Part shown: one piece after another, positions 5,823 through 61,333 of the stretch
Numbering within the stretch: position 1 is the stretch's first letter
Layout of the letters: every line of letters begins with the position of its first letter
Assembly: GCA_028717885.1 (NCBI GenBank)
Contig: JAQUMX010000006.1
Location: forward strand, 206-64,205
DNA: 64,000 bases
Direction of reading: 5' to 3'
DNA from: Candidatus Omnitrophota bacterium
GTDB lineage: Bacteria; Omnitrophota; Gorgyraeia; Gygaellales; Profunditerraquicolaceae
Program-made: the position numbers and the translations under genes
Notes under the pieces: model-generated
Seen by the model: the letters and a program-made list of their open reading frames with translations, nothing else
The model's database searches: none
What the model was told of the DNA's origin: nothing

Positions 5823-7045
5823 AAATAGTCCGTAGCAGCAATAAGTCCTTGGAAAAAATTTATCAGCGCCAATTCATCCGTTCACGCCGCATCGAAGATA
5901 AGGTGAGGAAAATCATCGAAGATGTACGCTTGTTTGGGGATGACGCGTTGTTACGCTATACCAAGAAATTTGACGGGGTGAAATTCACGCCTAAGCAGTT
6001 AAAGGTTTCGCAAATTGAAATCAGCGGCGCTTATCAAAACATTACCCCGAATTTTGTTTCCAGCCTTAAAGTTGTAATCGAAAATGTAAATCGTTTTTAT
6101 CGCAGGACCCTGAAAAAATCCTGGAGGCTGAAAGCCGGGGAAGGCCTGGTTTTAGGGGAGAATTATCAACCGTTGGAAAAGATAGGGGTTTATATTCCGG
6201 CAGGGACCGCGCCTTTGGTTTCTACGGTTTATATGACGATGCTGCCGGCAAAAATTGCCGGAGTAAAAAGAATCACTTTAGCCAGCCCTCCGGATAAAAA
6301 CGGCCTGATCAATCCGCATATCCTGGTGGTAGCCGATCTTTTAAAAGTAGATGAAATTTACCGCATGGGCGGAGCGCAGGCAATTGCTGCTTTTGCTTAC
6401 GGCACAAAAACTGTGGGGCGCGTGGATAAAATCGTCGGCCCCGGGAATATTTATGTCAGCGAAGCAAAGCGGCAGGTTTTTGGCGTGGTAGATATCGATA
6501 TGATTGCCGGGCCAACGGAACTGGTAATTATTGCCAACCGCTACAGCGAGCCAAAATTGATTATTGCGGATCTGCATGCCCAGGCCGAGCACGCGCATGG
6601 CTTAGCGATTTTAATTACCAATTCGCGCAGCCTCGCCAAAGAAGTAAAAGCCCAGACCGAACATATTAACGGCTTGATTATTTTAGTAAAGAATTTGGAG
6701 GAGGCTGCAGCAGTATCAAACCGCATTGCTCCCGAACACTTGGAAATTTTGATCAAGAATCCGCAGCGGATCTTGCATAGCATTAAGAATGCCGGGGCAA
6801 TATTTTTAGGTAATTATAGCCCGGCTGCAGTAGGGGATTATGTTGCCGGCCCCAGCCATGTTTTGCCAACGCACGGCACAGCCAGGTTCTTTTCCGGGTT
6901 GTCGGTCTGTGATTTCTTAAAGAGCAGCCACATTATCAGCTATTCCAAAAAGGCCCTGGAGAAAGTAAGGGATCCTTTGGAAAAAATCGCCGGTATCGAG
7001 GGCTTGAGCAAACATTTGGAATCTGTAAAAGTGAGATTTCAATAG
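5819..7045 (+). CDS. hisD: Histidinol dehydrogenase
   Basis: 408-aa ORF with HisD blocks (IDMIAGPTE, HAQAEHA, APEHLEI); ATGA overlap with alaS. Confidence 0.93.
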   Translation: MKIVRSSNKSLEKIYQRQFIRSRRIEDKVRKIIEDVRLFGDDALLRYTKKFDGVKFTPKQLKVSQIEISGAYQNITPNFVSSLKVVIENVNRFYRRTLKKSWRLKAGEGLVLGENYQPLEKIGVYIPAGTAPLVSTVYMTMLPAKIAGVKRITLASPPDKNGLINPHILVVADLLKVDEIYRMGGAQAIAAFAYGTKTVGRVDKIVGPGNIYVSEAKRQVFGVVDIDMIAGPTELVIIANRYSEPKLIIADLHAQAEHAHGLAILITNSRSLAKEVKAQTEHINGLIILVKNLEEAAAVSNRIAPEHLEILIKNPQRILHSIKNAGAIFLGNYSPAAVGDYVAGPSHVLPTHGTARFFSGLSVCDFLKSSHIISYSKKALEKVRDPLEKIAGIEGLSKHLESVKVRFQ

Positions 7046-12046: not shown

Positions 12047-12102
12047 GACACCCGGCCTTATCTGTTAGGCCGGTGTTCATTCGTATGAAAGGAGCAACAA
12101 AA
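12047..12102 (+). repeat. Family-3 cassette: GC hairpin plus conserved SD leader (copy 1, before rpsP)
   Basis: ACACCCGGCCT (12048-12058) / AGGCCGGTGT (12067-12076) then TCATTCGTATGAAAGGAG; near-identical cassette at 48455-48513. Confidence 0.7.
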
Positions 12103-21196: not shown

Positions 21197-21225
21197 TAAA
21201 ACCGGAAGCGGCAAAGAAAAGAGAA

Positions 21226-21285
21226 TGACCCATTCGCAAAATTCGCTCAGGGTCATCCCGAGCGAATCAAAAGGACCGAGGGATG
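21226..21285 (+). repeat. Family-2 double-hairpin cassette (copy 1, ends in the secE start codon)
   Basis: TGACCC (21226-21231)/GGGTCA (21250-21255) and CATCCC (21254-21259)/GGGATG (21280-21285); ATG 21283 is the secE start. Confidence 0.65.
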
Positions 21286-21546
21286 AATTTTTTTACGAGT
21301 AATTTAAAAGCTATAATTTTAAGCGTCGTAGTAATCGGCATCGTTCTTTTGGTAGTTAAGAATTACAAGAAGATAAAGCAATTTTTAACCGAAGTGAAAC
21401 AGGAGCTGGAGAAGGTATCCTGGTCAACCCGGGAGGAATTAATCGGTTCAACTGTAGTAGTGATCACCATCACCGCAATCACTGCAGTATTCATCGGAAT
21501 AATCGATCTTTTTCTCTCCAAAATCTTGAGCGTAATGTTTAAGTGA
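21283..21546 (+). CDS. secE: Preprotein translocase subunit SecE (with an extra N-terminal TM)
   Basis: C-terminal half E.KKV.WP(S)..E pattern (ELEKVSWSTREEL) plus TM; position before nusG. Confidence 0.85.
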   Translation: MNFFTSNLKAIILSVVVIGIVLLVVKNYKKIKQFLTEVKQELEKVSWSTREELIGSTVVVITITAITAVFIGIIDLFLSKILSVMFK

Positions 21547-21692
21547 GGACACAAGTTATGGTGCATTATATTAAAAATAATATCAGCGACATAACTTGTA
21601 AGTCCGAACTTATCCTTGCACCAATTGGCGCAAGGATTAATTCGCATAGCAACTTATGTTCACTTACGTTCCATAAGTTGCGTGCTCATTAA
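21543..21692 (+). repeat. Family-1 structured intercistronic element (copy A, secE|nusG)
   Basis: GTGAGGACA...AAGTCCGAACTTATCC core; hairpins 21547-21605, 21612-21637, 21649-21681; embedded 44-codon frame 21558-21692. Confidence 0.75.
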
Positions 21693-22220
21693 ATGAAAAA
21701 CTGGTACGTCGTACATACACAAACCGGCGCGGAAGATAAAGTCAAAACGTTATTGGAAAGCAGGATTTCTGCCCAGGGTTTAGCCGAAACAATCTCGCAG
21801 GTAGTTATTCCCACCGAACAGGTTTCCGAAGTGCGTTCCGGGAAAAAACGTATCTCGCAAAGAAAGTTCTTCCCCGGCTATCTGATCGTAGAAATGGAAT
21901 TGAATGAGCAAACCTACCTTTTAATCAAGGGCACCCCGGGAGTAACCGGCTTTATCGGGTTAGGGAAAAAACCTTTAGCCTTACCGCAAACCGAAGTTGA
22001 TAATATTTTGAAGAGGACCGAAGAGACGCACGCTAAACCAAGCCCCAAAATCGTTTTTGAGAAGGGCGAACAGGTTAGGGTGACTGAAGGTCCTTTTGTT
22101 AATTTTAACGGCACTATCGAAGAAATCCATCCGGAAAAGGGTAAATTAAAGGTCAGTGTTTCCATTTTTGGCAGGTCAACGCCTGTTGAATTGGAATATT
22201 GGCAAGTTGAGAAGGTATAA
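21693..22220 (+). CDS. nusG: Transcription termination/antitermination factor NusG
   Basis: WYVVHT NGN start, FPGY(L/V).VEM, C-terminal KOW ([14 protein letters not shown]). Confidence 0.95.
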
Positions 22221-22645: not shown

Positions 22646-23322
22646 AGAAACCAAGCAAAAGATACCAGGAATCAATAAAGTTAGTTGACAAAGATAAGGC
22701 GTTTCAGCTTAAAGAAGCGGTTTCTATTTTAAAGACAATGAAGCCGACGAAATTCGATGAGTCTGTAGATTTGCATTTAAGTTTGAATGTAGACCCCAAA
22801 AAATCAGAACAGATGGTGCGCGGTACGGTAGTACTGCCGCACGGAACCGGCAAAAAGGTTCGGGTTGCGGTCTTCTGTAAAGGCGAGCATGAAAAACAGG
22901 CTAAGGATGCCCAGGCAGATTTCGTGGGCGGCCTGGAATTAATCGAAAAAGTAGGCGCAGGTTTCCTGGATTTTGACTGTGCAATTGCTACTCCGGAAAT
23001 GATGAAAGATTTAAGCAAGCTAGGTAAGGTCTTAGGGCCGCGCGGCCTTATGCCAAGCCCCAAGACTGGAACAGTTACCAATGACATTGTCAGGGCAATC
23101 GAAGACGTGCGCAAAGGAAAAGTAGAATTCCGCGTAGATAAGCAGGGCGGAATGCATTTAAGCGTAGGAAAAATTTCTTTCTCCGAGGACAAGATATTGG
23201 AAAATGCCTCAAGGGTAATCGAGGCAATTAACGAAGCCAAGCCCGCATCAGTAAAAGGAAAATTCGTGCGCAGCCTCTTTATTTCTACCACGATGAACCC
23301 GGGATTAAGGATTTCAACATGA
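22642..23322 (+). CDS. rplA: 50S ribosomal protein L1
   Basis: FDESVDL...L.VDP(K/R)K.(D/E)Q.VRG...LPHGTGK pattern. Confidence 0.96.
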
Positions 23323-23377
23323 CCCTTAAACAAACTGCTCGTGGGAATGGTGCGCGAGCAAAGCGAGTCGAACCATG
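23320..23377 (+). repeat. Family-2 cassette (copy 2, rplA stop to rplJ start)
   Basis: TGACCC...ATGGTGCGCGAGCAAAGCGAGTCGAACCATG; TGA is the rplA stop, terminal ATG is the rplJ start; 30/33 nt identical to 56265-56297. Confidence 0.7.
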
Positions 23378-23914
23378 AAGAAAATCGGACTTATAGTTAA
23401 GGAAGTTTCGGAAGCCCGTTTAAAGAACAGCCTGAAAGGCTCGAACAGTTTTTTTGTGGTGAAATATTCCGGTTTATCCAGCCCCGATATTACGGCATTG
23501 CGCCTTTCTTTAAAGGGTTCGCAAGCCGACTTTTTTGTGGTAAAGAATGCCGTAGCCAGGCGCGCTTTGAAAAATGCCGGGATGGAAAATGCGGTAAAGT
23601 ATATTGATGGCCCATGCGGGATAATCTTTGCTAAAGATGAGCCGGTAGATGTTTCCAAGGTTCTATATAATTTCCTTAAAGATCATGAAAAGTTCCAACT
23701 GGGCGGCGGATTTTTAAAGGACCAGATTCTGGAAAAGAAGGATATCGAAGCATTGGCAAAACTGCCTTCCAAACAGGCGTTGCGCCAGCAATTAGTCGTA
23801 GCTTTAAATGCCCCGATTTCCAAATTTGTCCGCGCGTTGAATGGTACCTTAAGCAAATTCGTAATTTGCTTAGATCAAATAAAAGAAAAAAAATCAAAAG
23901 AGGGGGGTAAGTAA
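23375..23914 (+). CDS. rplJ: 50S ribosomal protein L10
   Basis: 179-aa ORF in the L10 position with typical L10 pattern (LR..L...G..F.VVKN.(L/V)A.RA). Confidence 0.93.
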
Positions 23915-35993: not shown

Positions 35994-36293
35994 ATGCAAA
36001 AGATTCGCATCAAACTAAAAGCCTATGACCATCGCCTGCTTGATCAGGCGGTAGCCGAGATCGTGGAAACTGTCCGGCGTACCGGAGCGAAAATTTCCGG
36101 GCCCGTACCGTTGCCCACGAAGCACGAGATTTATACGGTGCTGCGTTCGCCGGTAATCGATAAAAAATCCCGCGAGCAGTTCGAATTGGCGACACACAAG
36201 AGGCTGATTGATATTTTTGAACCTACATCCAAGACGATCGATTCCTTAAGGAAATTAAACCTTCCGGCAGGCGTGGATGTGGAAATTAAATGA
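35994..36293 (+). CDS. rpsJ: 30S ribosomal protein S10
   Basis: [16 protein letters not shown] start; ATG 35994 one nt after the tuf stop (track start 35985 rejected). Confidence 0.95.
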
Positions 36294-36401
36294 GGACATA
36301 ATTTATGGCGCGTAAGCGACATAAATTATAAGTCCGAATTTATCCCGCACAGCTTATATTAAAAGCTGTTGAGTGCGGGAATAACTTGCAAGGAAACTCA
36401 C
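36291..36401 (+). repeat. Family-1 structured intercistronic element (copy B, rpsJ|rplC)
   Basis: ATGAGGACATAATTTATGGCGCGTAAGCGACATAAATTATAAGTCCGAATTTATCCCG; hairpin 36294-36335 with GTAA tetraloop; second hairpin 36344-36379; mini-ORF 36305-36331. Confidence 0.75.
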
Positions 36402-37034
36402 ATGTTAGGTATTTTAGGAAAAAAACTAGGAATGACCCAGGTCTTTACGGAAAACGGAAGCCTTGTTTCCGTGACTGCCATCGAAGCCGGGCCATGCCCT
36501 ATATTAAAGGTAAATGAAAAGAGCCTGCAATTGGGTTTTGAGGCAATCGCAGAAAAGCATTTAAGTAAGCCGGTGCTTGGCTACTTTAAAAAACTGCAGC
36601 TTAATCCCTGCAAGGTGATTCACGAAGTGGTAAAGGACCCTTCCAAGGAATATAAGATTGGCGACCAGGTAAAGGTAGATATTTTTAAAGAAGGCGATTT
36701 CGTCGATGTGAGCGGAACTTCTATTGGTAAGGGTTTTCAGGGCGGGATGAAGCGTTGGCATTGGCATGGCGGGCCGCAAACCCATGGTTCGATGTCGCAC
36801 CGCAGGATTGGTTCTTTGGGGTCAAGTACCACCCCAGGCCGCACCTGGACCGGGCATCATTTACCCGGGCACTTGGGTAATACTCGGGTTACTACTCAGA
36901 ACCTGAAAATAATTAAAGTTGACCTGGAGAATAATATCCTCTTAGTCAAAGGTTCGGTACCGGGAAATAAAAATAATTATTTATTCATCAGGCAGGCGAA
37001 AAAGAAGAAGCCAAAGGCTGCTGCAACTAAATAA
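36402..37034 (+). CDS. rplC: 50S ribosomal protein L3
   Basis: MLGILGKKLGMTQVF is the canonical L3 N-terminus; AAGGAAA SD; track start 36369 lies inside the repeat element. Confidence 0.95.
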   Translation: MLGILGKKLGMTQVFTENGSLVSVTAIEAGPCPILKVNEKSLQLGFEAIAEKHLSKPVLGYFKKLQLNPCKVIHEVVKDPSKEYKIGDQVKVDIFKEGDFVDVSGTSIGKGFQGGMKRWHWHGGPQTHGSMSHRRIGSLGSSTTPGRTWTGHHLPGHLGNTRVTTQNLKIIKVDLENNILLVKGSVPGNKNNYLFIRQAKKKKPKAAATK

Positions 37035-42895: not shown

Positions 42896-43441
42896 ATGTC
42901 TTTAATTGGTAAAAAACCTATTGCAATACCGAGTGGAGTAAAAGTACAGGCAGAAAACGGCCAGCTTATGGTAGAAGGGCCGAAGGGAAAAATTGCGCGC
43001 CCGTTTTCTCACCGTTTAAATTTGGAATTAAAAGAGAATCAGGTTTTTGTGAAGCGTGTAGGCGATTCCAAGCTGGATAAATCCTTGCACGGCCTCTTCC
43101 GCGCTTTGATTGCCAATATGGTTAAGGGTGTAACTGACGGCTACAGCAAAGAATTGGAAATTATAGGCACCGGTTTTAAAGCTCAGATACAGGGGAATAA
43201 ATTGGTCTTGACCGTGGGTTTTTCGCATCCGGTTAATTTCACGATCCCCGAAGGCATTAAGATCGAAGCGCCTAAAGCAACTCACCTGGTGATTAGGGGC
43301 ATTGATAAAGAAAAGGTCGGAGAGATCGCTGCGGAGATCCGCGCGGTTTATCCTCCCGAACCATATAAAGGTAAAGGTATCCGCTATGTCGGCGAATACG
43401 TGAAGAAAAAGATCGGAAAGGCACAAGCAACTACTAAATAA
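42896..43441 (+). CDS. rplF: 50S ribosomal protein L6
   Basis: S.IGK.PI.IP.GV start and EPYKGKGIRY C-terminal block. Confidence 0.96.
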   Translation: MSLIGKKPIAIPSGVKVQAENGQLMVEGPKGKIARPFSHRLNLELKENQVFVKRVGDSKLDKSLHGLFRALIANMVKGVTDGYSKELEIIGTGFKAQIQGNKLVLTVGFSHPVNFTIPEGIKIEAPKATHLVIRGIDKEKVGEIAAEIRAVYPPEPYKGKGIRYVGEYVKKKIGKAQATTK

Positions 43442-43553
43442 GTGAGGACATAATTTATGGAGCGTAAGCGACATAAATTATAAGTCCGAACTTATCCCGA
43501 GTCCAAAGAGATTTTATAGTTGTAAACGAGGGATCTAAAAAGGTCATAGGAAT
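43442..43553 (+). repeat. Family-1 structured intercistronic element (copy C, rplF|rplR)
   Basis: GTGAGGACATAATTTATGGAGCGTAAGCGACATAAATTATAAGTCCGAACTTATCCCG; hairpin 43446-43487 with GTAA tetraloop; mini-ORF 43457-43483. Confidence 0.75.
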
Positions 43554-43916
43554 ATGAAAAACCATAAAGAACAATTAAGATTAAAGAGGCACAAAAGGAT
43601 TTTGATGAAGATTTTCGGCACAGCCGAGCGGCCGCGCTTGGTCATCCGCCGCAGTTTGCAGAATTTTCATGCGCAATTAATAGACGATACGAAACGTAAA
43701 TCCATAATTTCCCTTTCTACTCTTGATAAGCAGGTAAAGGCAAAAGCGCCTTCGGGCGGAAATAATAAGGCTGCAGTTGCCTTAGGAGAAGTTTTAGCCT
43801 TGCGTTTAAAAGAAAAAGGGGTTACCCAGGTTATTTTTGACCGGGCAGGGTATTTGTACCACGGCAGAGTCAAGTCTTTTGCCGATGCTTTAAGAAAGGG
43901 AGGCTTGAAGTTTTAA
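43554..43916 (+). CDS. rplR: 50S ribosomal protein L18
   Basis: RH.R(I)...(I).GT.ERPRL.V.RS..(N)..AQ(L)IDD start, FDR.GY.YHGR(V)K..A(D)A.R..GL.F end. Confidence 0.96.
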   Translation: MKNHKEQLRLKRHKRILMKIFGTAERPRLVIRRSLQNFHAQLIDDTKRKSIISLSTLDKQVKAKAPSGGNNKAAVALGEVLALRLKEKGVTQVIFDRAGYLYHGRVKSFADALRKGGLKF

Positions 43917-48029: not shown

Positions 48030-48455
48030 ATGCCAAGAATTTTAGGTGTGGACATCCCGAAGGAAAAAAGAATTGAGATCGCCCTGTGCTATCTTTTCGG
48101 CGTGGGCAGGTCTTTAGCAAACAACATCCTTAAAGAAGCGCAGATTTCTCCCGATAAGCGGGCAAAGGATTTAAGCGAAGAAGAGATTTTGCGCATTACC
48201 AACATCATTCAGAAAGGTTACCGCGTAGAAGGAGATTTACGCCGTGACATTTCGCAGAATATCAAGAGATTAGTCGATATCGGTTCCTGGAGAGGTTCGC
48301 GCCACAAAAAAGGCCTTCCTTGCAGAGGGCAGCGTACGCGTACAAATTCCAGGACACGTAAGGGCCCGCGTAAAGGCGGTATGGCGGTAATCAAGAAAGC
48401 GGATACCGCACCTAAAAAGTCAGCGCCTGCAGCAGCAAAGCCGGCCGGTAAATAA
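48030..48455 (+). CDS. rpsM: 30S ribosomal protein S13 (short Lys/Ala/Pro-rich C-terminal tail)
   Basis: M(P/A)RI.GVD(I)P..KR(I)EIAL.Y(L)(F)G(V)G start. Confidence 0.96.
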
Positions 48456-48513
48456 CACGCGGCCTTAATGGATAGGCCGGTGTGCATTTGTATGCAAGGA
48501 GGAATTAAGTTTT
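48455..48513 (+). repeat. Family-3 cassette: GC hairpin plus conserved SD leader (copy 2, before rpsK)
   Basis: ACACGCGGCCT (48455-48465) / AGGCCGGTGTG (48474-48484) then CATTTGTATGCAAGGAGG; matches 12047-12102. Confidence 0.7.
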
Positions 48514-51170: not shown

Positions 51171-52346
51171 ATGCGCATAGATACACGGTTGGCAGAGCGC
51201 TTAAAAAAAATAAATCCTTCCTCGACGCTCGCCATTACCAGTAAAGCAAAGAAATTAAAATCAGAAGGCCGGGATATCGTTAGTTTCGGAGCCGGCGAGC
51301 CTGATTTTGACACTCCTGATTTCGTAAAAGCCGCTGCAATAGAGGCAATCAACAGCGGCTTTACCAAATACACTCCAACCACCGGCACGCCGGAATTAAA
51401 AAAAGCCATTTCCGAAAAATTCAAAAAAGAAAATTCCCTGGATTACAATCCTTCGCAAGTTGTAGTCTCCTGCGGGGCAAAGCACTCTATTTTTAATATT
51501 CTTTTTGTTTTGATTGACCGCGGTGACGAAGTTCTGATTCCTTGCCCTTACTGGGTAAGCTATCCGGAGATGGTTAATCTCTGCGAAGGCTTGCCTAAAT
51601 TTGTCAAGACCCGCCCGGAAAATAAATTCAAAATGACAATCGAAGATCTGGAGCGCTGCCTTAACCCAAAAACGAAAATCCTTATCCTGAACAGCCCGTC
51701 AAATCCAACCGGTTGTGTTTATTCCGAGCAGGAGCTAAAACAAATCGCCCAGCTTTGCGTAAAGAAAAAAATCTTTGTGATTTCCGATGAGATCTACGAA
51801 AAGATTATCTATGATTCGGCAAAACACATCTCGATTGCCTCTTTAGGCAAAGATATTAATGACCTGGCGATTACGGTAAACGGCATTTCCAAAAGCTATT
51901 CCATGACCGGATGGAGGATCGGCTATCTGGCAGGCCCGCAGGATATTGTGGATGCGATTTCTAAATTGCAGGATCATACTACATCCTGCCCGTCTTCGAT
52001 CAGCCAGAAAGCAGCCGTAGCAGCGTTAAATGATAACGGCGAATTTGCCAAAAAGATTACTTTGGAATTTCTAAGGCGCAGGAATTATTGCATCAAGCGT
52101 TTAAACGCCATGCCTAAGGTTAGCCCGGTTGTCCCGGAAGGCGCTTTTTATATTTTTTGCGATATTTCCAAAACAAAATTAAAGTCTTTGGACTTTGCTA
52201 CCCGTTTATTGGATGAGGCGATGGTGGCGGTAATCCCCGGAAATGGTTTTGGCAGGGATGATTATATGCGTATCAGTTTTGCTACCAGTATGGAACAATT
52301 ACAAAAAGGCTTGGACAGGATAGAGGAGTGGTTGAAAAAACTTTAA
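51171..52346 (+). CDS. Class I PLP-dependent aminotransferase (aspartate aminotransferase-like)
   Basis: FGAGEPDFDTP, NSPSNPTG, PLP-lysine block SKSYSMTGWRIGY. Confidence 0.85.
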   Translation: MRIDTRLAERLKKINPSSTLAITSKAKKLKSEGRDIVSFGAGEPDFDTPDFVKAAAIEAINSGFTKYTPTTGTPELKKAISEKFKKENSLDYNPSQVVVSCGAKHSIFNILFVLIDRGDEVLIPCPYWVSYPEMVNLCEGLPKFVKTRPENKFKMTIEDLERCLNPKTKILILNSPSNPTGCVYSEQELKQIAQLCVKKKIFVISDEIYEKIIYDSAKHISIASLGKDINDLAITVNGISKSYSMTGWRIGYLAGPQDIVDAISKLQDHTTSCPSSISQKAAVAALNDNGEFAKKITLEFLRRRNYCIKRLNAMPKVSPVVPEGAFYIFCDISKTKLKSLDFATRLLDEAMVAVIPGNGFGRDDYMRISFATSMEQLQKGLDRIEEWLKKL

Positions 52347-53599
52347 TGGGTAAGACAATCGCGGAAAAAATTTTAAGCAGCCACTCCGGCAAGGGCCTTT
52401 CAGCCGGAGATTTTGCAATTTGCAAAGTAGATTTTACTTTCGGACAGGACGGCACTTCTTCGATTATTATTGACCGGGTCAAAGAGCTGGGCGCGGATTC
52501 CTTAAAAACTAACTTTTGTATGGTGATTGACCATAGCGCGCCATCTCCCAGCGAAGGCGTTTCTCGCGTGCATAAAAAGATGCGCGGGTTTGCCCAGGAT
52601 TATAAAGTTTTTCTTTATGATATCGGCTGCGGAGTCTGCCACCAGGTAATTCCCGCTTCGGGAAAAATCCTCCCCGGAGATTTAGTACTGGGAGCTGATT
52701 CACATACCTGCACTTACGGCGCATTAAGCGCATTTTCTACGGGTGTTGGCTCAACTGACCTGGCAATTGCCGCTGCTACGGGAAAAAACTGGTTTAAGGT
52801 CCCGGAAACAATCAAAATTATCGTTAAAGGAAAAATTCCTAAGGGTATTTTTGCCAAAGATATCATCCTGCATATTATTACCAGTATTGGAGCAGACGGG
52901 GCTACTTACAAAGCAGTAGAATTTTCCGGCCCGGTAATCGATAATTTAAGCATGGATGCGCGCCTTACCATTTGCAACATGGTAGTAGAGATGGGCGCAA
53001 AAGCCGGGTTTATGCCGGTGGATAAAAAGGCCGTTGATTGGCTGAAAGCGCGCGGAGTGCCGGCGAATAAAATCAAGAAAATTGCCGCAGATAAAGATGC
53101 GCATTATGCGCAAGTCCTGGAATACGATATTTCCCGCTTGACACCGCAGGTAGCCAGGCCTCATAATGTAGATAGCGCAGTAAGCGTAACTGCCCTTAAA
53201 GACGTTAAAATCCAGGAAGGCTATCTTGGTACTTGCACTAACGGCAGGCTGGAAGACTTAGAAATTGCCGCTAAAATCTTAAAAGGAAAGAAAGTTTTTC
53301 CCGGAGTGCGGTTTATTATCGCCCCGGCATCGCGGGAAATTTATTTGCAGGCATTAAAAGAAGGCCTGGTCGATATTTTTGTCAAATCAGGTGCGGTGAT
53401 TGTTTCACCCGGATGCGGCCCATGCGTAGGCACGCATAACGGCGTTCCGGCAGACGGAGAAGTAGTAATTTCCAGCGCCAACAGGAATTTTAAAGGCAGG
53501 ATGGGTAATCCCAATAGCTTTATTTATTTGGCATCACCGGCAACCGTCGCAGCGTCGGTCATCAAAGGGAGGATAAATGATCCGAGAAGATGTTTCTAA
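52346..53599 (+). CDS. Aconitase-family dehydratase, large subunit (3-isopropylmalate/homoaconitate dehydratase type)
   Basis: ~417 aa; GADSHT, GTCTNGR and PGCGPCVG Fe-S ligand blocks; ATG 52346 shares one nt with the upstream stop. Confidence 0.82.
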   Translation: MGKTIAEKILSSHSGKGLSAGDFAICKVDFTFGQDGTSSIIIDRVKELGADSLKTNFCMVIDHSAPSPSEGVSRVHKKMRGFAQDYKVFLYDIGCGVCHQVIPASGKILPGDLVLGADSHTCTYGALSAFSTGVGSTDLAIAAATGKNWFKVPETIKIIVKGKIPKGIFAKDIILHIITSIGADGATYKAVEFSGPVIDNLSMDARLTICNMVVEMGAKAGFMPVDKKAVDWLKARGVPANKIKKIAADKDAHYAQVLEYDISRLTPQVARPHNVDSAVSVTALKDVKIQEGYLGTCTNGRLEDLEIAAKILKGKKVFPGVRFIIAPASREIYLQALKEGLVDIFVKSGAVIVSPGCGPCVGTHNGVPADGEVVISSANRNFKGRMGNPNSFIYLASPATVAASVIKGRINDPRRCF

Positions 53600-53615
53600 A
53601 GTAGGGGGGTCGACC

Positions 53616-54662
53616 ATGGAGATCAAAGACCTGTTAATGCTTTGTATCGAGAAACAAGCTTCGGATTTGCACCTTACCGAAAATGAGCCGCCGATCCTGC
53701 GTATCGACGGGAAATTGATCCGCACGGAATTCCCGGTAATGAACCGCCATGATTTAAAACGCATGGTTTATAGCGTGCTCTCCAACCCGCAAAAAGAATT
53801 ATTCGAAAAAAATTTAGAGCTGGATTTTTCCCTGGCATTTCCCGGGATGGACCGTTTCCGCGCCAATATACATATGCAAAAAGGGTGTGTGGAAGTGGCA
53901 TTCCGGCGCGTGCCGATTACCGTGCCCAGCACCGATGAATTAGGGTTGCCTCCTATGCTCGCGGAATTAGCGCGTAAGCCTAACGGCCTGGTTTTGGTTA
54001 CCGGCCCTACAGGCGTAGGAAAGACTACAACCTTGGCTGCATTAATCGAGCAAATCAATCAGGAAAGAGAAGCATTGATTATTTCTATCGAGGACCCGAT
54101 CGAGTTTGTTTTTACAAACAAGAAGAGCGTGATTAAACAAAGGGAAGTTTACGCGGATACGCATTCTTTTTCCGAAGCATTAAGGCACGCTTTGCGTCAG
54201 GACCCCAATGTTATCGTTGTAGGCGAAATGCGCGATTTGGAAACTATTTCTACCACACTTACCGCTGCAGAAACCGGCCACTTGGTTTTAGCTACCTTGC
54301 ACACCCCGGATGCGCCGCAGACAATCGAAAGAATTATTGACGTATTCCCGCCGCACCAGCAAACGCAGGTAAAATTGCAGTTGGCAGACTGTTTGCAAGG
54401 GGTGGTTTCCCAGTTGTTGCTCCCGCGCGCAGCCGGAAAGGGGCGCGTGCTTGCCTGTGAAATCATGGTGGCAACCCCTGGCATCAGGAATATGATCCGC
54501 GAGCAGGAGATCGAGCAGATCCCTACGGCAATGCAAACCGGCAGCCAATTCGGGATGAAAACCATGGACCGCTCATTAAAAGATTTATTCCAGCAGGGAA
54601 TTATCACCTTGGACGCCGCTTTATCAAAAGTTAAAAACGCAGAGGAATTCAAGCACTTATGA
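53616..54662 (+). CDS. pilT: Type IV pilus retraction ATPase PilT-like
   Basis: ASDLHL, Walker A GPTGVGKTT, Walker B VIVVGEMRD, His box TGHLVLATLHT, PilT-type GIRNMIRE; ATG 53616 behind GGGGGG (track start 53577 overlaps the upstream gene). Confidence 0.88.
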   Translation: MEIKDLLMLCIEKQASDLHLTENEPPILRIDGKLIRTEFPVMNRHDLKRMVYSVLSNPQKELFEKNLELDFSLAFPGMDRFRANIHMQKGCVEVAFRRVPITVPSTDELGLPPMLAELARKPNGLVLVTGPTGVGKTTTLAALIEQINQEREALIISIEDPIEFVFTNKKSVIKQREVYADTHSFSEALRHALRQDPNVIVVGEMRDLETISTTLTAAETGHLVLATLHTPDAPQTIERIIDVFPPHQQTQVKLQLADCLQGVVSQLLLPRAAGKGRVLACEIMVATPGIRNMIREQEIEQIPTAMQTGSQFGMKTMDRSLKDLFQQGIITLDAALSKVKNAEEFKHL

Positions 54663-55159
54663 AATTATCCGGCAAGGCAGTTAAACTAGGCGATAATATC
54701 AATACTGATTTTATTATTTCCGGCCGTTATAAATTCGCCATTACTGACATGAAGGAACTGGCAAAGCATATTATGGAGGATATTGACCCGGAGTTTCCTA
54801 AAAAGATTGTCCCCGGTAAAACTGTTTTGGTCGCAGGAAATAATTTTGGCATGGGCTCATCGCGTGAACAGGCTCCTTTGGTAATTAAAGAATCCGGGAT
54901 TATTGCTTGTGTAGCTACTTCTTTTGCGCGGATTTTCTACCGCAATGCTTTTAATATCGGGCTGCCCTTGATCGAATTAGATACTGTTAAGATCGACGAA
55001 CAGGACGAGCTGGAAATTGACCTTGATCACGGGGTGGTAAAAGATTTAACCAAAAATAAAGAATATAAAATCAAGCCTTTGCCTCCGTTTATGCAGGAAT
55101 TATTAAAAGAAGGCGGAGTGGTGAATTATATCAAGAAATATAAAGAGCTTAAGGTTTAA
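54659..55159 (+). CDS. Aconitase-family dehydratase, small subunit (LeuD/HacB type)
   Basis: 166 aa; [26 protein letters not shown] block; ATGA overlap with the pilT stop. Confidence 0.82.
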
Positions 55160-55160
55160 G

Positions 55161-56240
55161 ATGCATAAAATAACTTTAATCCCCGGTGACGGGATCGGGC
55201 CGGAAGTAGCAGATGCAGCCAGAAGGTGTATCGACGCTACCGGAGTAAAAATCGAATGGGAAGAAGCAATTGCCGGGCAATTGGCTTTGGAAAAACAAGG
55301 AAGCCTTTTACCGGATAGCGTGATTGCTTCGATCAAAAAGAATAAAGTCGCGTTAAAGGGGCCGATTGTTACGCCTATCGGCACGGGTTTTCGCTCGGTG
55401 AATGTTGCTATTCGCCATGCTTTGGATTTATTTGCCTGCGTGCGCCCGGCAAAATCATACGCCGGTGTGCGAAGCAATTACCGCGATATTGATTTGGTGA
55501 TTGTGCGTGAGAACAGCGAAGATTTATACGCAGGGATTGAGTTTGAGGAAGGTAAGTCGGAAACGATAAATCTGATTGAGCAAATAGAAAAATACAGCAA
55601 AAAGAAAATTCGCCCGGATTCCGGGATTTCAATTAAGCCGATTTCCAAGACCGCTTCCGAGAGGATCGTGCGTTTTGCTTTTGAATATGCCTTAAAAAAT
55701 AACCGGAAAAAAGTTACTGCCATTCAAAAAGCAAATATCATGAAATTTACCGATGGCCTTTTCCTGAAAGTTGCCCGCGAAGTGGCAAAAGAATATGAAG
55801 GAAAGGTAGTTTTTGAAGAAGGCCTGGTAGATAATATGTCCATGCAGCTGGTGCAGAAGCCGCACAATTACGATGTGTTGGTATTGCCTAACCTTTACGG
55901 AGATATTCTTTCCGATCTTTGTGCCGGATTGATCGGAGGCTTAGGTATTGCTCCGGGCGCAAATATCGGAGAAGAGGCAGCGGTTTTTGAAGCGGTACAT
56001 GGATCTGCTCCCAAATATACCGGCCAGAATAAAGTTAATCCTACGGCAATGATTCTTTCCGGAGTGTTGATGCTGCGCCATATCAAAGAAGAAAAAGCCG
56101 CAGACAAATTAGAAGCGGCGGTAAAGGCAGTGTTAGCAGAAGGTAAATCCGTTACTTACGATTTAAAGCCTGACCGTAACGATCCTACCAGTGTAGGCAC
56201 ACGGGAAATGGCTGACGCAATCATTGCGAAACTAACATGA
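55161..56240 (+). CDS. Isocitrate/homoisocitrate dehydrogenase-like beta-decarboxylating dehydrogenase
   Basis: [15 protein letters not shown](I)R..LDL(F)A.VRP, (V)(I)VREN(S)EDLY(A)[10 protein letters not shown](L)..GL(I)GGLG blocks. Confidence 0.85.
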
Positions 56241-56297
56241 CCTTCCGCAAAACTTTGTTTAGGGTCATGGTGCGCGAGTGAAACGAGTCGAACCATG
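56238..56297 (+). repeat. Family-2 cassette (copy 3, ICDH-like stop to mdh start)
   Basis: TGACCT...AGGGTCATGGTGCGCGAGTGAAACGAGTCGAACCATG; CATGGT (56266-56271)/ACCATG (56292-56297). Confidence 0.7.
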
Positions 56298-57215
56298 AAA
56301 ATTTCTATTATCGGTGCCGGAAATGTCGGCGGAACTGCAGCTATGCGCCTTGCCCAGGAGGGTATAGGCGATATTTTTTTAATTGATATCGCTAAGGGCT
56401 TAGCACAGGGAAAAGCTTTTGATTTGGACGACGCTCGCCCGATTCTAAAACATCATTACCATATTACAGGCACCGAGGATTTCGCAGCAGTAAAAGATTC
56501 GGAGATTGTGGTGGTTACAGCCGGCTTGGCAAGAAAACCCGGAATGACCCGCGAGGACCTTTTAAATAAAAACGCCGCGATCTTAAAAAGTATCTGCCTG
56601 GATTTAAAAAAACTCTCTCCCAAGGCAATCCTTATTATTGTTACTAATCCGCTGGATATTATGACTTACCTGGCATTGAAAGTAACCGGCTTTAAAGCGA
56701 ACCGGGTAATTGGCATGGGAGTCAGCCTTGACGCTGCAAGGTTTGCAAATCTCATTAGCCAGGAATTAAAGGTTTCCAGTGCTGATGTAGAGGCAATGGT
56801 AATCGGCGGCCACGGAGAAGGGATGTTGCCTTTAGCGCGTTTTAGCAATATTAAAGGTGTGGCGTTGGATGAATTTATCGGCGAAGATAAAATTAATGAG
56901 TTAGTGCAGCGTACTTTTGACCGCGGAAAAGAAATTGTTTCATTATTAGGCAGCGGCAGCGCTTTTTATGCTCCTTCTGCGGCAATTGCGCAAATGGTAA
57001 AAATCATTGCCAAGGATGAGAAGCGTACTATCGGCGCCTGCGCCTACTTAAACGGCGAATATGGATTAGAAGACCTCTGTATCGGAGTACCGGTGCGTTT
57101 AGGCAATAATGGCATTGAGGAAATTATTAAATTAGATTTGAATAAACAGGAAACCGAAGCCCTTCTTAAAGCAGCGGATCAAATTAAGGAACAATATAAA
57201 AACTTAACCATCTAA
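56295..57215 (+). CDS. mdh: Malate dehydrogenase (LDH-like family)
   Basis: IIGAGNVGG Rossmann motif; substrate-loop AGLARKPGMTRED has Arg at the position that is Gln in lactate dehydrogenases; catalytic (I)GGHG. Confidence 0.9.
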   Translation: MKISIIGAGNVGGTAAMRLAQEGIGDIFLIDIAKGLAQGKAFDLDDARPILKHHYHITGTEDFAAVKDSEIVVVTAGLARKPGMTREDLLNKNAAILKSICLDLKKLSPKAILIIVTNPLDIMTYLALKVTGFKANRVIGMGVSLDAARFANLISQELKVSSADVEAMVIGGHGEGMLPLARFSNIKGVALDEFIGEDKINELVQRTFDRGKEIVSLLGSGSAFYAPSAAIAQMVKIIAKDEKRTIGACAYLNGEYGLEDLCIGVPVRLGNNGIEEIIKLDLNKQETEALLKAADQIKEQYKNLTI

Positions 57216-59353: not shown

Positions 59354-61333
59354 ATGCCTATTAAAGCTAAGCTTTTTTTATTTTTAATTTTCTTTTCTTT
59401 TTCATCTTTTGCTTTTGCCGACAATCTGATCAAAAATCCGGACATGGAACAAGGGTCCCCTACAGCCTGGACCAGTTCTGTGAACAAAACTGCCAATCGA
59501 GCGCTTTACGCTTCTGACAGCTATCATTCCGCTGCGCGTTCCCTAAAAATCATCAATACGGTTTCCGGTATTTCCAATTGGAAAGGTAATCGCTATACTT
59601 TTAAATCAGGATCTCGGCCCAAAAAAATCTATTATTCCGCCTGGGTAAAAGGAGAGAATATTTCGGTTACAGGCGCGGTTTTTTTAAACCTGGTAGTAAC
59701 CTTTACAGACGGCAGGAGGCAGGTTATTAGTGACTTAAGGTTTCCTTCCGGCACCTATAATTGGACACAGGTGAGTTTAAATAAAACTTTTACCAAGTCG
59801 GTAAAATCCTTCCAGCCCTATTTTTATTTTTCCGGCGGCATCGGTACAGCCTGGTTCGATGACCTATCTATTGGCACGAACGGCTCCAATAATTATGCTT
59901 TGAATCCGAATATGGAGGAAGGCAAGCCCCTTAATTGGGCTGCTTATACTACATCCTCAAATAAAGCGCTTTATGCTGCAGATAATTTTCATTCCGGAGC
60001 GCGTTCTTTGGAGATCATTAATTTATTGCCGCGAGTTTCCTATTGGAAAGGGGATGTTGTTAAGTTTAGTAAGCCATACCCAAAACAATTTAAGGCTTCG
60101 GTTTGGGCAAAAGGCGCAAGCATTTCTGCTAATTCTATAGTGGCAATGTACTTCAGGGTAGTTTTTGATAATAATTCTTCCAAGGCCTTTTACGCTGACC
60201 AAAGATTCCCTTCCGGCACTTTTGATTGGATTGAAAAGCAAGACATTAAAACCTTTACCAGGGGGATAAAATCCATTCAGCCGTGTGTTTATTTTAGCGC
60301 AGGTAGAGGCACAGCCTGGTTCGATGATTTTAGCCTTTCGACACAGATTAATACTAATCCGCAGATTACAAATGTAGTTCCTGAAGATAATTCGGATATC
60401 CTCCTGGGCGCTAATGTCAATATTACTGTTATTGCTACAGATAGCGATAATGATGTATTGGAATACCAATTCTCTATTGCCGGCACAGTTAAGCAGGCGT
60501 GGTCAAGCGCAAATACTTATGCCTGGGTTACTCAAACTTCTGACCTTGGCTTAAACAGCGTTTTATGCGAAGTGCGGGATAACAAAGGAGGCACGGACTC
60601 AAAAACCATTAGCTTACGCGTGCTCAATCCAAGCGTAGAAGAGATCTTGCAGAAAGTAGCCAATAATTATGCTTTAGTCTCTGACTTAACCGCAGATATG
60701 ACCTTAACCTCAACTCTTAACGGCGAGCCTTTTGGACAAACAGATTACTGTAAATATTATTTTAAAGCGCCGAGCAAAGAGAGGACTGATTCTTTCTCTG
60801 ATGCCACACGTTTAACTAAGGTCGAAGCTAATATTATGAATGGCTCTAATATGTATTTGATAGATACAATAAATAAAATAGTACAGCCGGTTGATCTTCT
60901 GAATGAAGCAGGAATCAATAGTGCGCAATTTAGCCAAATGGACTTGTATTATAACCAGAGTAATTTCTTAGATAACCATACGGTTACGAAAAACACAGAA
61001 AAGTCGGATTTAGTCAATTTCGTCGTGACTTTTGACGCCGTTCCTAAAGAGCAGAATAATCTTTACTCGAAATTAGAGTTATATATTGATTATAAGAAAG
61101 GATTATTGAAGAAGTCTTGTTTATATAAGCAGAATACCTCCGGCCAATCAGAATTGCTACAGACTATCGAAACCGTCGAATCTCAGCAGATGCCTAATGG
61201 AGCGTGGGTTGTAAAGAAAATGCAAAAAACTCCAGTTTTAAAATCAGGAAATTTAATCGATACTGCAAGCTACGAGAACCAACAAGTAAATATCGGCTTA
61301 AACGATACAGATTTTGATCCAGAACAACAATAG
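59354..61333 (+). CDS. Secreted multidomain protein: 2 x jelly-roll/CBM-like repeat, Ig-like domain, LolA-like C-terminal domain
   Basis: Signal peptide ...FAFA-DN; two ~155-aa paralogous repeats ending GTAWFDD(L/F)S(I/L); PKD/Ig-like ATDSDNDVLEYQF segment; C-terminal domain pattern resembles lipoprotein-sorting/LolA-like proteins (tentative). Confidence 0.6.
   Translation: MPIKAKLFLFLIFFSFSSFAFADNLIKNPDMEQGSPTAWTSSVNKTANRALYASDSYHSAARSLKIINTVSGISNWKGNRYTFKSGSRPKKIYYSAWVKGENISVTGAVFLNLVVTFTDGRRQVISDLRFPSGTYNWTQVSLNKTFTKSVKSFQPYFYFSGGIGTAWFDDLSIGTNGSNNYALNPNMEEGKPLNWAAYTTSSNKALYAADNFHSGARSLEIINLLPRVSYWKGDVVKFSKPYPKQFKASVWAKGASISANSIVAMYFRVVFDNNSSKAFYADQRFPSGTFDWIEKQDIKTFTRGIKSIQPCVYFSAGRGTAWFDDFSLSTQINTNPQITNVVPEDNSDILLGANVNITVIATDSDNDVLEYQFSIAGTVKQAWSSANTYAWVTQTSDLGLNSVLCEVRDNKGGTDSKTISLRVLNPSVEEILQKVANNYALVSDLTADMTLTSTLNGEPFGQTDYCKYYFKAPSKERTDSFSDATRLTKVEANIMNGSNMYLIDTINKIVQPVDLLNEAGINSAQFSQMDLYYNQSNFLDNHTVTKNTEKSDLVNFVVTFDAVPKEQNNLYSKLELYIDYKKGLLKKSCLYKQNTSGQSELLQTIETVESQQMPNGAWVVKKMQKTPVLKSGNLIDTASYENQQVNIGLNDTDFDPEQQ
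59423..60364 (+). repeat. Intragenic tandem duplication of a ~155-codon domain
   Basis: Residues ~24-176 and ~181-337 align colinearly (NP.ME.G.P..W...., ALYA.D..HS.ARSL.IIN, WKG, RFPSGT(Y/F).W, GTAWFDD). Confidence 0.8.

Follow-up and report, generated by a model that had tools for sequence, protein, structure and literature searches.

Why should a ribosomal protein gene and a gene of the tricarboxylic acid (TCA) cycle carry the same sequence directly 5′ of their start codons? The question arises in a 64,000-nucleotide (nt) stretch of the Candidatus Omnitrophota contig JAQUMX010000006.1 (the window), where the spacer between a gene for an isocitrate/isopropylmalate dehydrogenase-like protein (Iso_dh) and the malate dehydrogenase gene mdh has a block of 33 nt in common with the rplA–rplJ spacer. 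The block, ATGGTGCGCGAG-N5-CGAGTCGAACCATGAA, is found at 23347–23379 and 56267–56299 with three differences, all of them in N5, and 0 such matches are expected in shuffled sequences. An earlier note on this DNA had recognized this common 5′ architecture of an r-protein gene and a TCA-cycle gene, and had left the choice between a mobile intercistronic element and a global regulator or RNase recognition site. We found that the mdh spacer is an insertion relative to close relatives, and that it is probably a copy of a small non-coding hairpin repeat that behaves as mobile DNA.

Insertion at the Iso_dh/mdh junction

The window genes, hairpins and repeat copies described in this section lie on the + strand. 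According to the list of open reading frames (ORFs), the Iso_dh-like gene covers 55161–56240 and ends with TGA at 56238–56240, and mdh, encoding 306 amino acids (aa), covers 56295–57215. The Pfam domain PF00180 was found in the orthologue of the Iso_dh-like gene in the related contig L121, and the homologues of Mdh, which have PF00056 and PF02866, bear Omnitrophota names. From its ATG at 56295, mdh begins with MKISIIGAGNVGG, and this N-terminus agrees with those of the orthologues. The junction between the two genes consists of a left ATGA (56237–56240), an inserted body of 54 nt (CCTTCCGCAAAACTTTGTTTAGGGTCATGGTGCGCGAGTGAAACGAGTCGAACC, 56241–56294) and a right ATGA (56295–56298), whose ATG is the mdh start codon. 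The left ATGA contains both the TGA stop of the Iso_dh-like gene and the ATG of a short ORF of 14 codons plus stop (56237–56281), which ends with TGA at 56279–56281, 13 nt 5′ of the mdh ATG.

This junction was then compared with those of relatives (L-numbers denote contigs or loci of relatives and metagenomes compared with the window). In L120, whose Mdh is 98% identical, and in L121, at 85% identity, the two genes meet at a bare ATGA, reading ctaagATGAagattt and ctaaaATGAagatc, respectively, and the left ATGA of the window is the counterpart of this single stop/start overlap. The three-way alignment of the window, L120 and L121 junctions was collinear save for one clean 58-nt indel. In L247, a more distant relative (69%), the same junction is filled by a different, diverged copy.

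Two further copies were found in the window, and all three have ATGA at both start and end, with 58 (mdh), 56 (rplJ) and 58 nt (secE) from left ATG to right ATG. The sister copy between rplA and rplJ (23319–23378; left ATGA 23319–23322, right ATGA 23375–23378) has a bare ATGA as its counterpart in L122 (L10 88% identical) and is also missing from L246 (70%), whereas in L124 (L10 81% identical) the site is filled by a copy slightly different from that of the window. The mdh and rplJ copies both carry a rare A-to-C change (GGTGCGCGAG) that is absent from the L124 copy, which suggests a common recent source or homogenization within the genome. A diverged sister copy between tRNA-Trp and secE (21225–21286) was detected by profile search, with an nhmmer E-value of 0.02 for the two-copy model and 7e-11 for the family model; the secE start is a plain ATGA in both L122 and L124.

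Independent evidence for insertion was provided by nested copies, in which a CGA-type element lies in the left half of another element at TTCGA|C (L175, ~2740–2830, and L224, ~940–1010), since its excision leaves a perfect canonical half-site, CCCTTCGACTTCGCTCAGGG. Of the three origins offered in the earlier note, the mobile element is favored by empty sites, nesting and unrelated neighboring genes. A regulator, an RNase site or a thermometer is not needed and is disfavored as the source of the sequence, since the same junction lacks the element in the relatives whose Mdh is 98% and 85% identical. The element may still have a secondary role as RNA.

Structure and complementarity of the repeat family

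To the base, the sequence agrees with the two pairings described in the earlier note: TGACCT (56238–56243) with AGGGTCA (56261–56267), which places the upstream stop codon in a stem, and CATGGT (56266–56271) with ACCATG (56292–56297), which places the mdh ATG in a second one. The full stem of hairpin 1 (56237–56268) has eight pairs, one being T-G, between ATGACCTT (56237–56244) and AGGGTCAT (56261–56268), and hairpin 2 covers 56266–56297. Both stems use CAT at 56266–56268, the shared junction already noticed there, so that the two hairpins compete and cannot both be complete simultaneously. The absence of a Shine–Dalgarno (SD) sequence before mdh also held, with no GGAG/AGGA-type sequence within 20 nt 5′ of the ATG. 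What the earlier note did not contain were the repeated ATGA bounds, the ORF bridging rplA and rplJ, and the structured nature of the hairpin 2 ‘loop’.

To place the window copies in a family, metagenomes were scanned with a relaxed pattern in which two positions were loosened, TGGTGNGCGAG-N4-6-CGAGTCNAACCA. At least 120 metagenomic loci, with G+C contents from 0.35 to 0.71, matched this right-hand module. The metagenome scan with the window's own variant GGTGCGCGAG returned 0 matches because the window copies hold the lineage-specific A-to-C change, and a scan of genome contigs with GTGCGCGAG-N3-9-CGAGTCGAAC, a pattern too short and too GC-rich, returned 119 matches that were all chance matches inside coding regions of high-GC genomes. 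We aligned 25 full copies and compared 102 distinct right-hand modules. The consensus of the window type was RTGA-YCCT-TCGAC-(0 to ~70 variable nt)-GCTC-AGGR-TCAT-GGT-GAGCGAG-Y-RNA-R-CGAGTCGA-ACC-ATGA, where the variable stretch often holds an extra GC hairpin. The left halves of the window copies, including that of the mdh copy, are degenerate versions of this consensus.

Single-sequence folding was no better than that of shuffled sequences (z = −0.7 to −1.7), and the mdh and rplJ copies had different minimum-energy folds, so that structural support rests on the comparison of copies. Over the 25 aligned copies, the two-hairpin model had 89% of cells paired and eight pairs changed on both sides, where 0 of 500 shuffles reached the observed pairing and slid controls were 10–48% paired. 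In hairpin 1, pair 4:54, which includes the fourth base of the flanking tetranucleotide, was A:U in 18 copies and G:C in 2; pair 5:53 was C:G in 16 and U:A in 8, and pair 8:50 was U:A in 14 and C:G in 2. In hairpin 2 of the secE copy, the three inner pairs are all altered on both sides, giving a right stem of CATCCC/GGGATG instead of CATGGT/ACCATG. Both hairpins are thus maintained by covariation. The left and right halves of the element are also mutually complementary (TCGAC/GTCGA and CTTGCTCA/TGAGCGAG), and an alternative single long hairpin was 88% paired versus at most 57% in slid controls, but without covariation because the search pattern kept the right half constant.

The 20 nt enclosed by hairpin 2 (56272–56291) form a structured hairpin rather than a loop, which we describe as a rod on the basis of covariation, with its G-A pairs taken from a model. 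In the proposed outer part, a purine-purine pair G72-A91 would be followed by C73:G90, G74:C89, a bulged T88 and C75:G87, and the inner part would consist of the tandem G-A pairs G76-A86 and A77-G85, then G78:C84 and T79:A83 around a GAA loop. The closing pair of the rod, defined as the first and last bases of the variable 4–6 nt, was C..G in 79, T..A in 18, G..C in 2, T..G in 2 and C..A in 1 of the 102 modules (Fisher p = 1e-16). Together with the flanking G:C pairs, it yields the cores GCGAAGC, GTGAAAC or GCAAAGC; among DNA mini-hairpins with GNA or GNNA loops, d(GCGAAGC) and d(GCGAAAGC) are the classic examples of very high stability. Among the 3-nt loops in the modules, 86% were of RNA type (with R for purine: GNA or ANA). 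At 73/90 the consensus A-G is replaced in the window by a Watson-Crick C:G pair, which fits the rod model.

A further regularity connects the flank, the centre and the end of each copy. The three read ATGA/TCAT/ATGA in the majority of copies, and variant triads were ATGG/CCAT/ATGG (L147 and L242), CGA/TCG/CGA (L134, L136, L175, L224 and L231), CGG/CCG/CGG (L183) and ATCG/CGAT/ATCG (L132); that is, the flanking tetranucleotide covaries with its internal complement. A left GTGA accompanied a right ATGA in 3 of the 25 full copies of the alignment (4 of the 17 copies whose ORFs were analysed), which is easier to understand if an element with its own 3′ ATGA was inserted after an RTGA target than as a simple duplication, although mutation after duplication could have led to the same state.

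The arrangement of the family was not limited to full copies between genes. Copies of the module alone exist directly 5′ of ATG, and inverted pairs begin one base past the 3′ end of a tRNA in L155 (2255–2282), L169 (4239–4266) and L185 (12424–12451). At these tRNA ends, the module lies as its reverse complement with an inverted partner behind it; in L155, the only one of these loci that was read, a T-rich run comes next, so that the whole resembles a terminator hairpin. Tandem arrays of module fragments (...GAGCGAGCG-AGCGACCTGTGGTGAGCGAG...GTCGAACCAGTCGAACCAGTCGAA...) were found in the high-GC contigs L157, L161, L212 and L235. Two matches were in viral contigs, one of them flush with an ATG: in the IMG/VR viral contig L249 (3635–3662), the module, in the window's rare GGTGCGCGAG variant, sits directly between an upstream TAG and the ATG.

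The S9 protein 3′ of a copy of 65% G+C was nearest to named Omnitrophota proteins, and the HrcA 3′ of another copy, which has the right-hand module only, was from Candidatus Woesebacteria. The family therefore spans Omnitrophota of widely different G+C content plus at least one other lineage. Rfam returned only tRNA and transfer-messenger RNA matches, both in gathering-threshold searches of the whole window and 20 canonical loci and in E-value searches around the elements up to E = 10. No element match was found in the plasmid and phage record collections, and no description of this family was found in the literature searched by sequence string and by concept. The family, its Omnitrophota spread, the rod hairpin and the flank-centre-end complementarity appear to be undescribed in the sources searched.

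Translation, mobility and alternative explanations

The right ends of ATGA type all opened long ORFs or ran off the contig (30 of 30), and each of the 10 downstream proteins that were looked up is on public record with exactly that start. On the other side, 16 copies have a left tetranucleotide ending in TGA, which in at least 12 of them terminates a long ORF upstream. The downstream genes are functionally unrelated and, by our own reading of the sequences, encode L10, L11, S9, RbfA, MurI, LpxC, Def, UppP, HrcA, PstA, CoxIII and others. The argument of the earlier note that gene-specific autoregulation cannot explain the shared architecture is sound.

We had considered active recognition of start codons by the element, but this was withdrawn because the first null, a ~54% share of start codons among tolerated ATGA sites, had been set too low. 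On the + strand of the window, only 2 ATGA sites lie outside genes and elements versus ~20 ATGA start codons, and the last part of the window, which had looked non-coding, is a single long ORF that continues beyond it. With ~70–90% of tolerated window ATGA sites being starts, 33 of 33 gives p ~1e-5 to 0.03. An ATGA target combined with purifying selection explains most of the start-codon association, which is largely expected.

For the mdh junction, the history would be as follows. In the ancestor, the Iso_dh-like gene and mdh would have overlapped by ATGA, as they still do in the close relatives, and mdh, which has no obvious SD even in the empty-site relatives L120 and L121, was presumably translated by termination and re-initiation at that ATGA. 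An element of 54 nt plus a second ATGA would then have been inserted exactly in the overlap, so that the left ATGA preserves the upstream TGA stop and the right ATGA supplies the mdh ATG in its original reading context. Since both stop and start are rebuilt, such an insertion would be tolerated even before essential genes such as rplJ and secE. The inserted unit comprises a left hairpin into whose stem the flanking ATGA is paired, a TCAT at the centre that is complementary to each ATGA, and a right hairpin with a purine-rich rod and a GNA loop that ends flush with the start codon.

Given the lack of an SD and the pairing of its ATG, translation of mdh most likely remains coupled to that of the Iso_dh-like gene. 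A ribosome that terminates at the left TGA would re-initiate at the ATG overlapping it and proceed through the 14-codon ORF, which is probably translated although it is not a conserved peptide; this reading would melt hairpin 2 and allow a restart 13 nt downstream at the mdh ATG. The family as a whole fits the same kind of relay, in which the ribosomes on the short ORF would melt the start-codon hairpin. The ORF opened by the left start ended at the right ATG, or at most 55 nt short of it, in 17 of 17 copies. Stops are built into the right-hand module in two of its three frames, and all four copies in the third, at-risk frame have a stop-creating TGAAA loop, which occurs in ~40% of copies overall (p ~0.03). 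At rplA–rplJ, an AAGGA in the end of rplA is kept 7 nt 5′ of the left ATG, and the ORF of 19 codons overlaps each neighboring gene by 4 nt, ending in an ATGA overlap with rplJ. Copies with a decayed right half carry SD-like sequences there, namely AAGGA in the loop of the secE copy, 8 nt 5′ of the secE ATG, and GAGGAG in the right half of the L247 copy.

Less firmly and by analogy, the element may move as single-stranded hairpin DNA, with its target picked by pairing of the internal TCAT, in the manner of IS200/IS605 or REP-RAYT systems. The strand of the element is fixed and coincides with positive GC skew. The flank-centre-end complementarity makes this a concrete hypothesis of guide-directed targeting. 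A broader proposal can be drawn from it, which as a joint claim we consider rather doubtful: the repeats would be phylum-wide miniature mobile elements reading their target by a 3–4-nt internal guide (TCAT for ATGA, with CCAT, TCG and CGAT variants), the dominant subfamily would have settled on ATGA because stop and start are rebuilt there and the insertion is translationally ‘invisible’ in essential operons, and a single-strand DNA enzyme recognizing the purine-rich rod hairpin would be the mobilizer.

Several observations weigh against an origin as mobile DNA or against the relay. No transposase or autonomous partner was found, and no long element with the same ends was found in the element-bearing loci; no left half lacking a right half within 140 nt was detected in these loci either. 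Presence and absence ignore relatedness, the rplA–rplJ site being empty in the 88% relative and filled in the 81% relative, which together with the refilled L247 junction implies repeated insertion or precise loss. A target-site duplication is indistinguishable here from insertion 3′ of the target by an element ending in its own ATGA. Because the search pattern prescribed the right-hand module, ascertainment partly accounts for how invariant it appears among the metagenomic copies. In the window, it is far better conserved than the left half, which could reflect a host-level function. The frame of the short ORF is not conserved (frame 2 in nine copies, frame 1 in seven and frame 0 in one), so that the relay rests on indirect evidence, and the left ORF of the secE copy continues past the secE ATG.

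A candidate partner was also considered and rejected. The related Omnitrophota contig L247 encodes a RAYT-like Y1 transposase ORF of 222 aa (5864–6532), which reached 67 bits against the NF047646 cut-off of 80 and is not flanked by the element, and for which neither 633 kb of element-bearing loci nor the window yielded a homologue; these points count against mobility as well. The ORF is flanked by unrelated 22-nt direct repeats (TTCTTTGATAAnATAT...) and adjoins an RHS/YD-repeat gene inserted between genes for an aconitase-like small subunit and Iso_dh.

Four other explanations were weighed against the mobile repeat. A cis-regulatory RNA, whose start-codon hairpin would be a thermometer or a global regulator or RNase site co-regulating rplJ, secE and mdh, would account for a paired start codon, for a structure kept by covariation on the mRNA-sense strand, for the sense orientation of every copy and for the better conservation of the right-hand module than of the left half in the window copies, and the long hairpin of both halves could free the ATG. 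That long pairing shows no covariation, however, and the element is missing at mdh in the 98% and 85% relatives and at rplA–rplJ in L122 and L246, stands before genes unrelated in function, has no Rfam match, and its module also occurs in tandem arrays, in nested copies and beside tRNA 3′ ends, so that we regard such an origin as unlikely. For a gene-specific leader, such as an L10 leader, or an RNA thermometer in particular, no conserved orthologous position was found, with the element absent from L120, L121, L122 and L246. An RNA processing site, where cleavage at the base of the hairpin would separate the cistrons and leave the mdh mRNA leaderless at or next to its AUG, seems less probable still. 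Leaderless translation depends on AUG, and it would suit this idea that the right end is always flush with ATG (ACC-ATG) without a preceding SD and that the left start may be GTG while the right one is always ATG, by construction in the sample; yet this constancy is partly a result of how the copies were selected, and there was no Rfam match to a ribozyme or RNase P-type family. By-eye comparison with hammerhead, twister and pistol cores gave no fit, and a ribozyme identity was rejected.

That the spacer encodes a small protein, of 14 aa at mdh or 19 aa at rplA–rplJ, is very improbable, even though an ORF begins at the left ATG in every copy and overlaps the downstream gene by ATGA in 9 of 17 metagenomic copies and in the rplA–rplJ copy. 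The frame through the best-conserved part differs between copies, as the ATG-to-ATG distance of 58 nt at mdh versus 56 nt at rplJ requires, and this ruled out a protein-coding reading; conservation is at the nucleotide level with covarying base pairs, and the peptides diverge after the first six residues. Finally, likeness of the mdh and rplJ spacers by chance or by misassembly could be argued only from the non-significant folding energies of single sequences, and has already been refuted by the 33-nt identity with its shuffled expectation of 0 and by the occurrence of the family in independent NCBI, ENA and JGI assemblies.

Besides the hairpin repeat, three other sets of repeats were observed in the window. 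A second cassette family of ~115–150 nt is present at 21540–21696 (secE–nusG), 36284–36405 (rpsJ–rplC) and 43436–43558 (rplF–rplR). Its members start with RTGA-GGAC and have a stem topped by GCGTAAGC-like mini-hairpins; the rpsJ–rplC copy ends at ATGT, and the other two at an ATGA start. In L122 and L124, secE and nusG overlap as a bare ATGA, so that these cassettes are insertions of the same kind as the hairpin repeat. Another repeated intergenic unit occurs at 12048–12097 and 48455–48504 (82% identical to each other); its GC hairpin (ACACCCGGCC...GGCCGGTGT) precedes TCATTCGTATGAAAGGAG, in which there is an SD-like sequence. Internal repeats at 59731–59862 and 60196–60327, 465 nt apart and 78–80% identical, lie within an ORF of 659 aa (59354–61333) and indicate a repeated protein domain. 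Upstream of the Iso_dh-like gene, a PilT/T2SSE-type ATPase gene (53577–54662) sits between the genes for the large (52328–53599) and small (54659–55159) subunits of an aconitase/isopropylmalate-isomerase-like enzyme; the gene ends in this cluster (52328–55159) overlap, and the order is kept in L121 and L247.

Comparison with known systems

Short structured repeats of several kinds resemble the element in part. Like REP and REPIN sequences (PMC2817692, PMC3116915 and PMC3733652), it is a short, structured, high-GC intergenic hairpin repeat that occurs singly, in inverted pairs and in arrays and combines a hairpin with an adjacent tetranucleotide, and a RAYT-like gene is present in a related genome (L247). 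REP elements have GTAG-type heads and RAYT (Y1 HUH) transposase partners (PMC2817692), whereas no GTAG or CGTC head was present in the 25 aligned copies, which are bounded by RTGA or, in variants, by ATGG or CGA. The element is also flush with start codons and ATGA-bounded, not extragenic in the usual 3′ sense, and no RAYT flanked by it was found in the loci examined.

A second comparison is with miniature relatives of the IS200/IS605 group, in which IS608 and ISDra2 choose their targets in a guide-directed manner. The likeness covers the covariation-supported hairpins at both ends, the strand specificity, a tetranucleotide 5′ of the element with a related one at its 3′ end and an internal sequence complementary to both, a bulged T in a hairpin, and loops of the DNA mini-hairpin type. 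The element differs in that its tetranucleotides are themselves Watson-Crick paired into the stems, and in that no autonomous Y1 TnpA relative with the same ends was found in the element-bearing loci. Neisseria REP2 and the Borrelia inverted repeats lie directly 5′ of genes, supply the ATG and have two internal stem-loops, but they also carry a promoter and a ribosome-binding site (PMC3184786), both of which the element lacks, relying on the upstream cistron instead.

Of the known systems, the mycobacterial MIRU comes closest, and by analogy the element would work in the same way. MIRUs (Supply et al. 1997, as summarized in PMC12548453 and PMC3184786) are units of 40–100 bp inside operons, co-oriented with transcription, with internal GC-rich inverted repeats, insertion at start codons and an internal ORF that is coupled, at −4 nt, to the gene downstream. 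Also described for them are sites empty in one relative and filled in another, direct repeats of a tetranucleotide at both ends and an ORF overlapping the adjacent genes (PMC3184786). Correspondingly, a unit of 54 nt plus ATGA lies between co-oriented genes at three sites in the window, and ATGA...ATGA in the window stands against a single ATGA in L120, L121 and L122. The −4 ORF overlap was seen at rplA–rplJ and in 9 of 17 metagenomic copies, but not at mdh, where the gap is 13 nt, or at secE, and only about half of the element copies have an intact bridging ORF. The element further differs from MIRU in its phylum (Omnitrophota, with one Woesebacteria copy of the right-hand module only), the two being likened by description and not by sequence; in occurring as a single unit at the mdh locus, not a tandem array; and in its two-hairpin anatomy, purine-rich rod and three-way flank/centre/end complementarity.

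In sum, the finding is real and this kind of element has precedent. The repeat explains the odd 5′ architecture, devoid of ribosome-binding sites, that unrelated housekeeping genes of this genome have in common, and it is a warning to annotators against calling the short ORFs or shifting start codons at such junctions. Its copies are natural experiments in which 54–130 nt of structured RNA were placed between the stop and start of essential r-protein genes without killing expression. The MIRU idea of insertion at start codons, rendered harmless by translational coupling, is hereby extended to uncultivated Omnitrophota and, for the module, to one Woesebacteria lineage, suggesting that it is a general solution for mobile DNA in very compact genomes.

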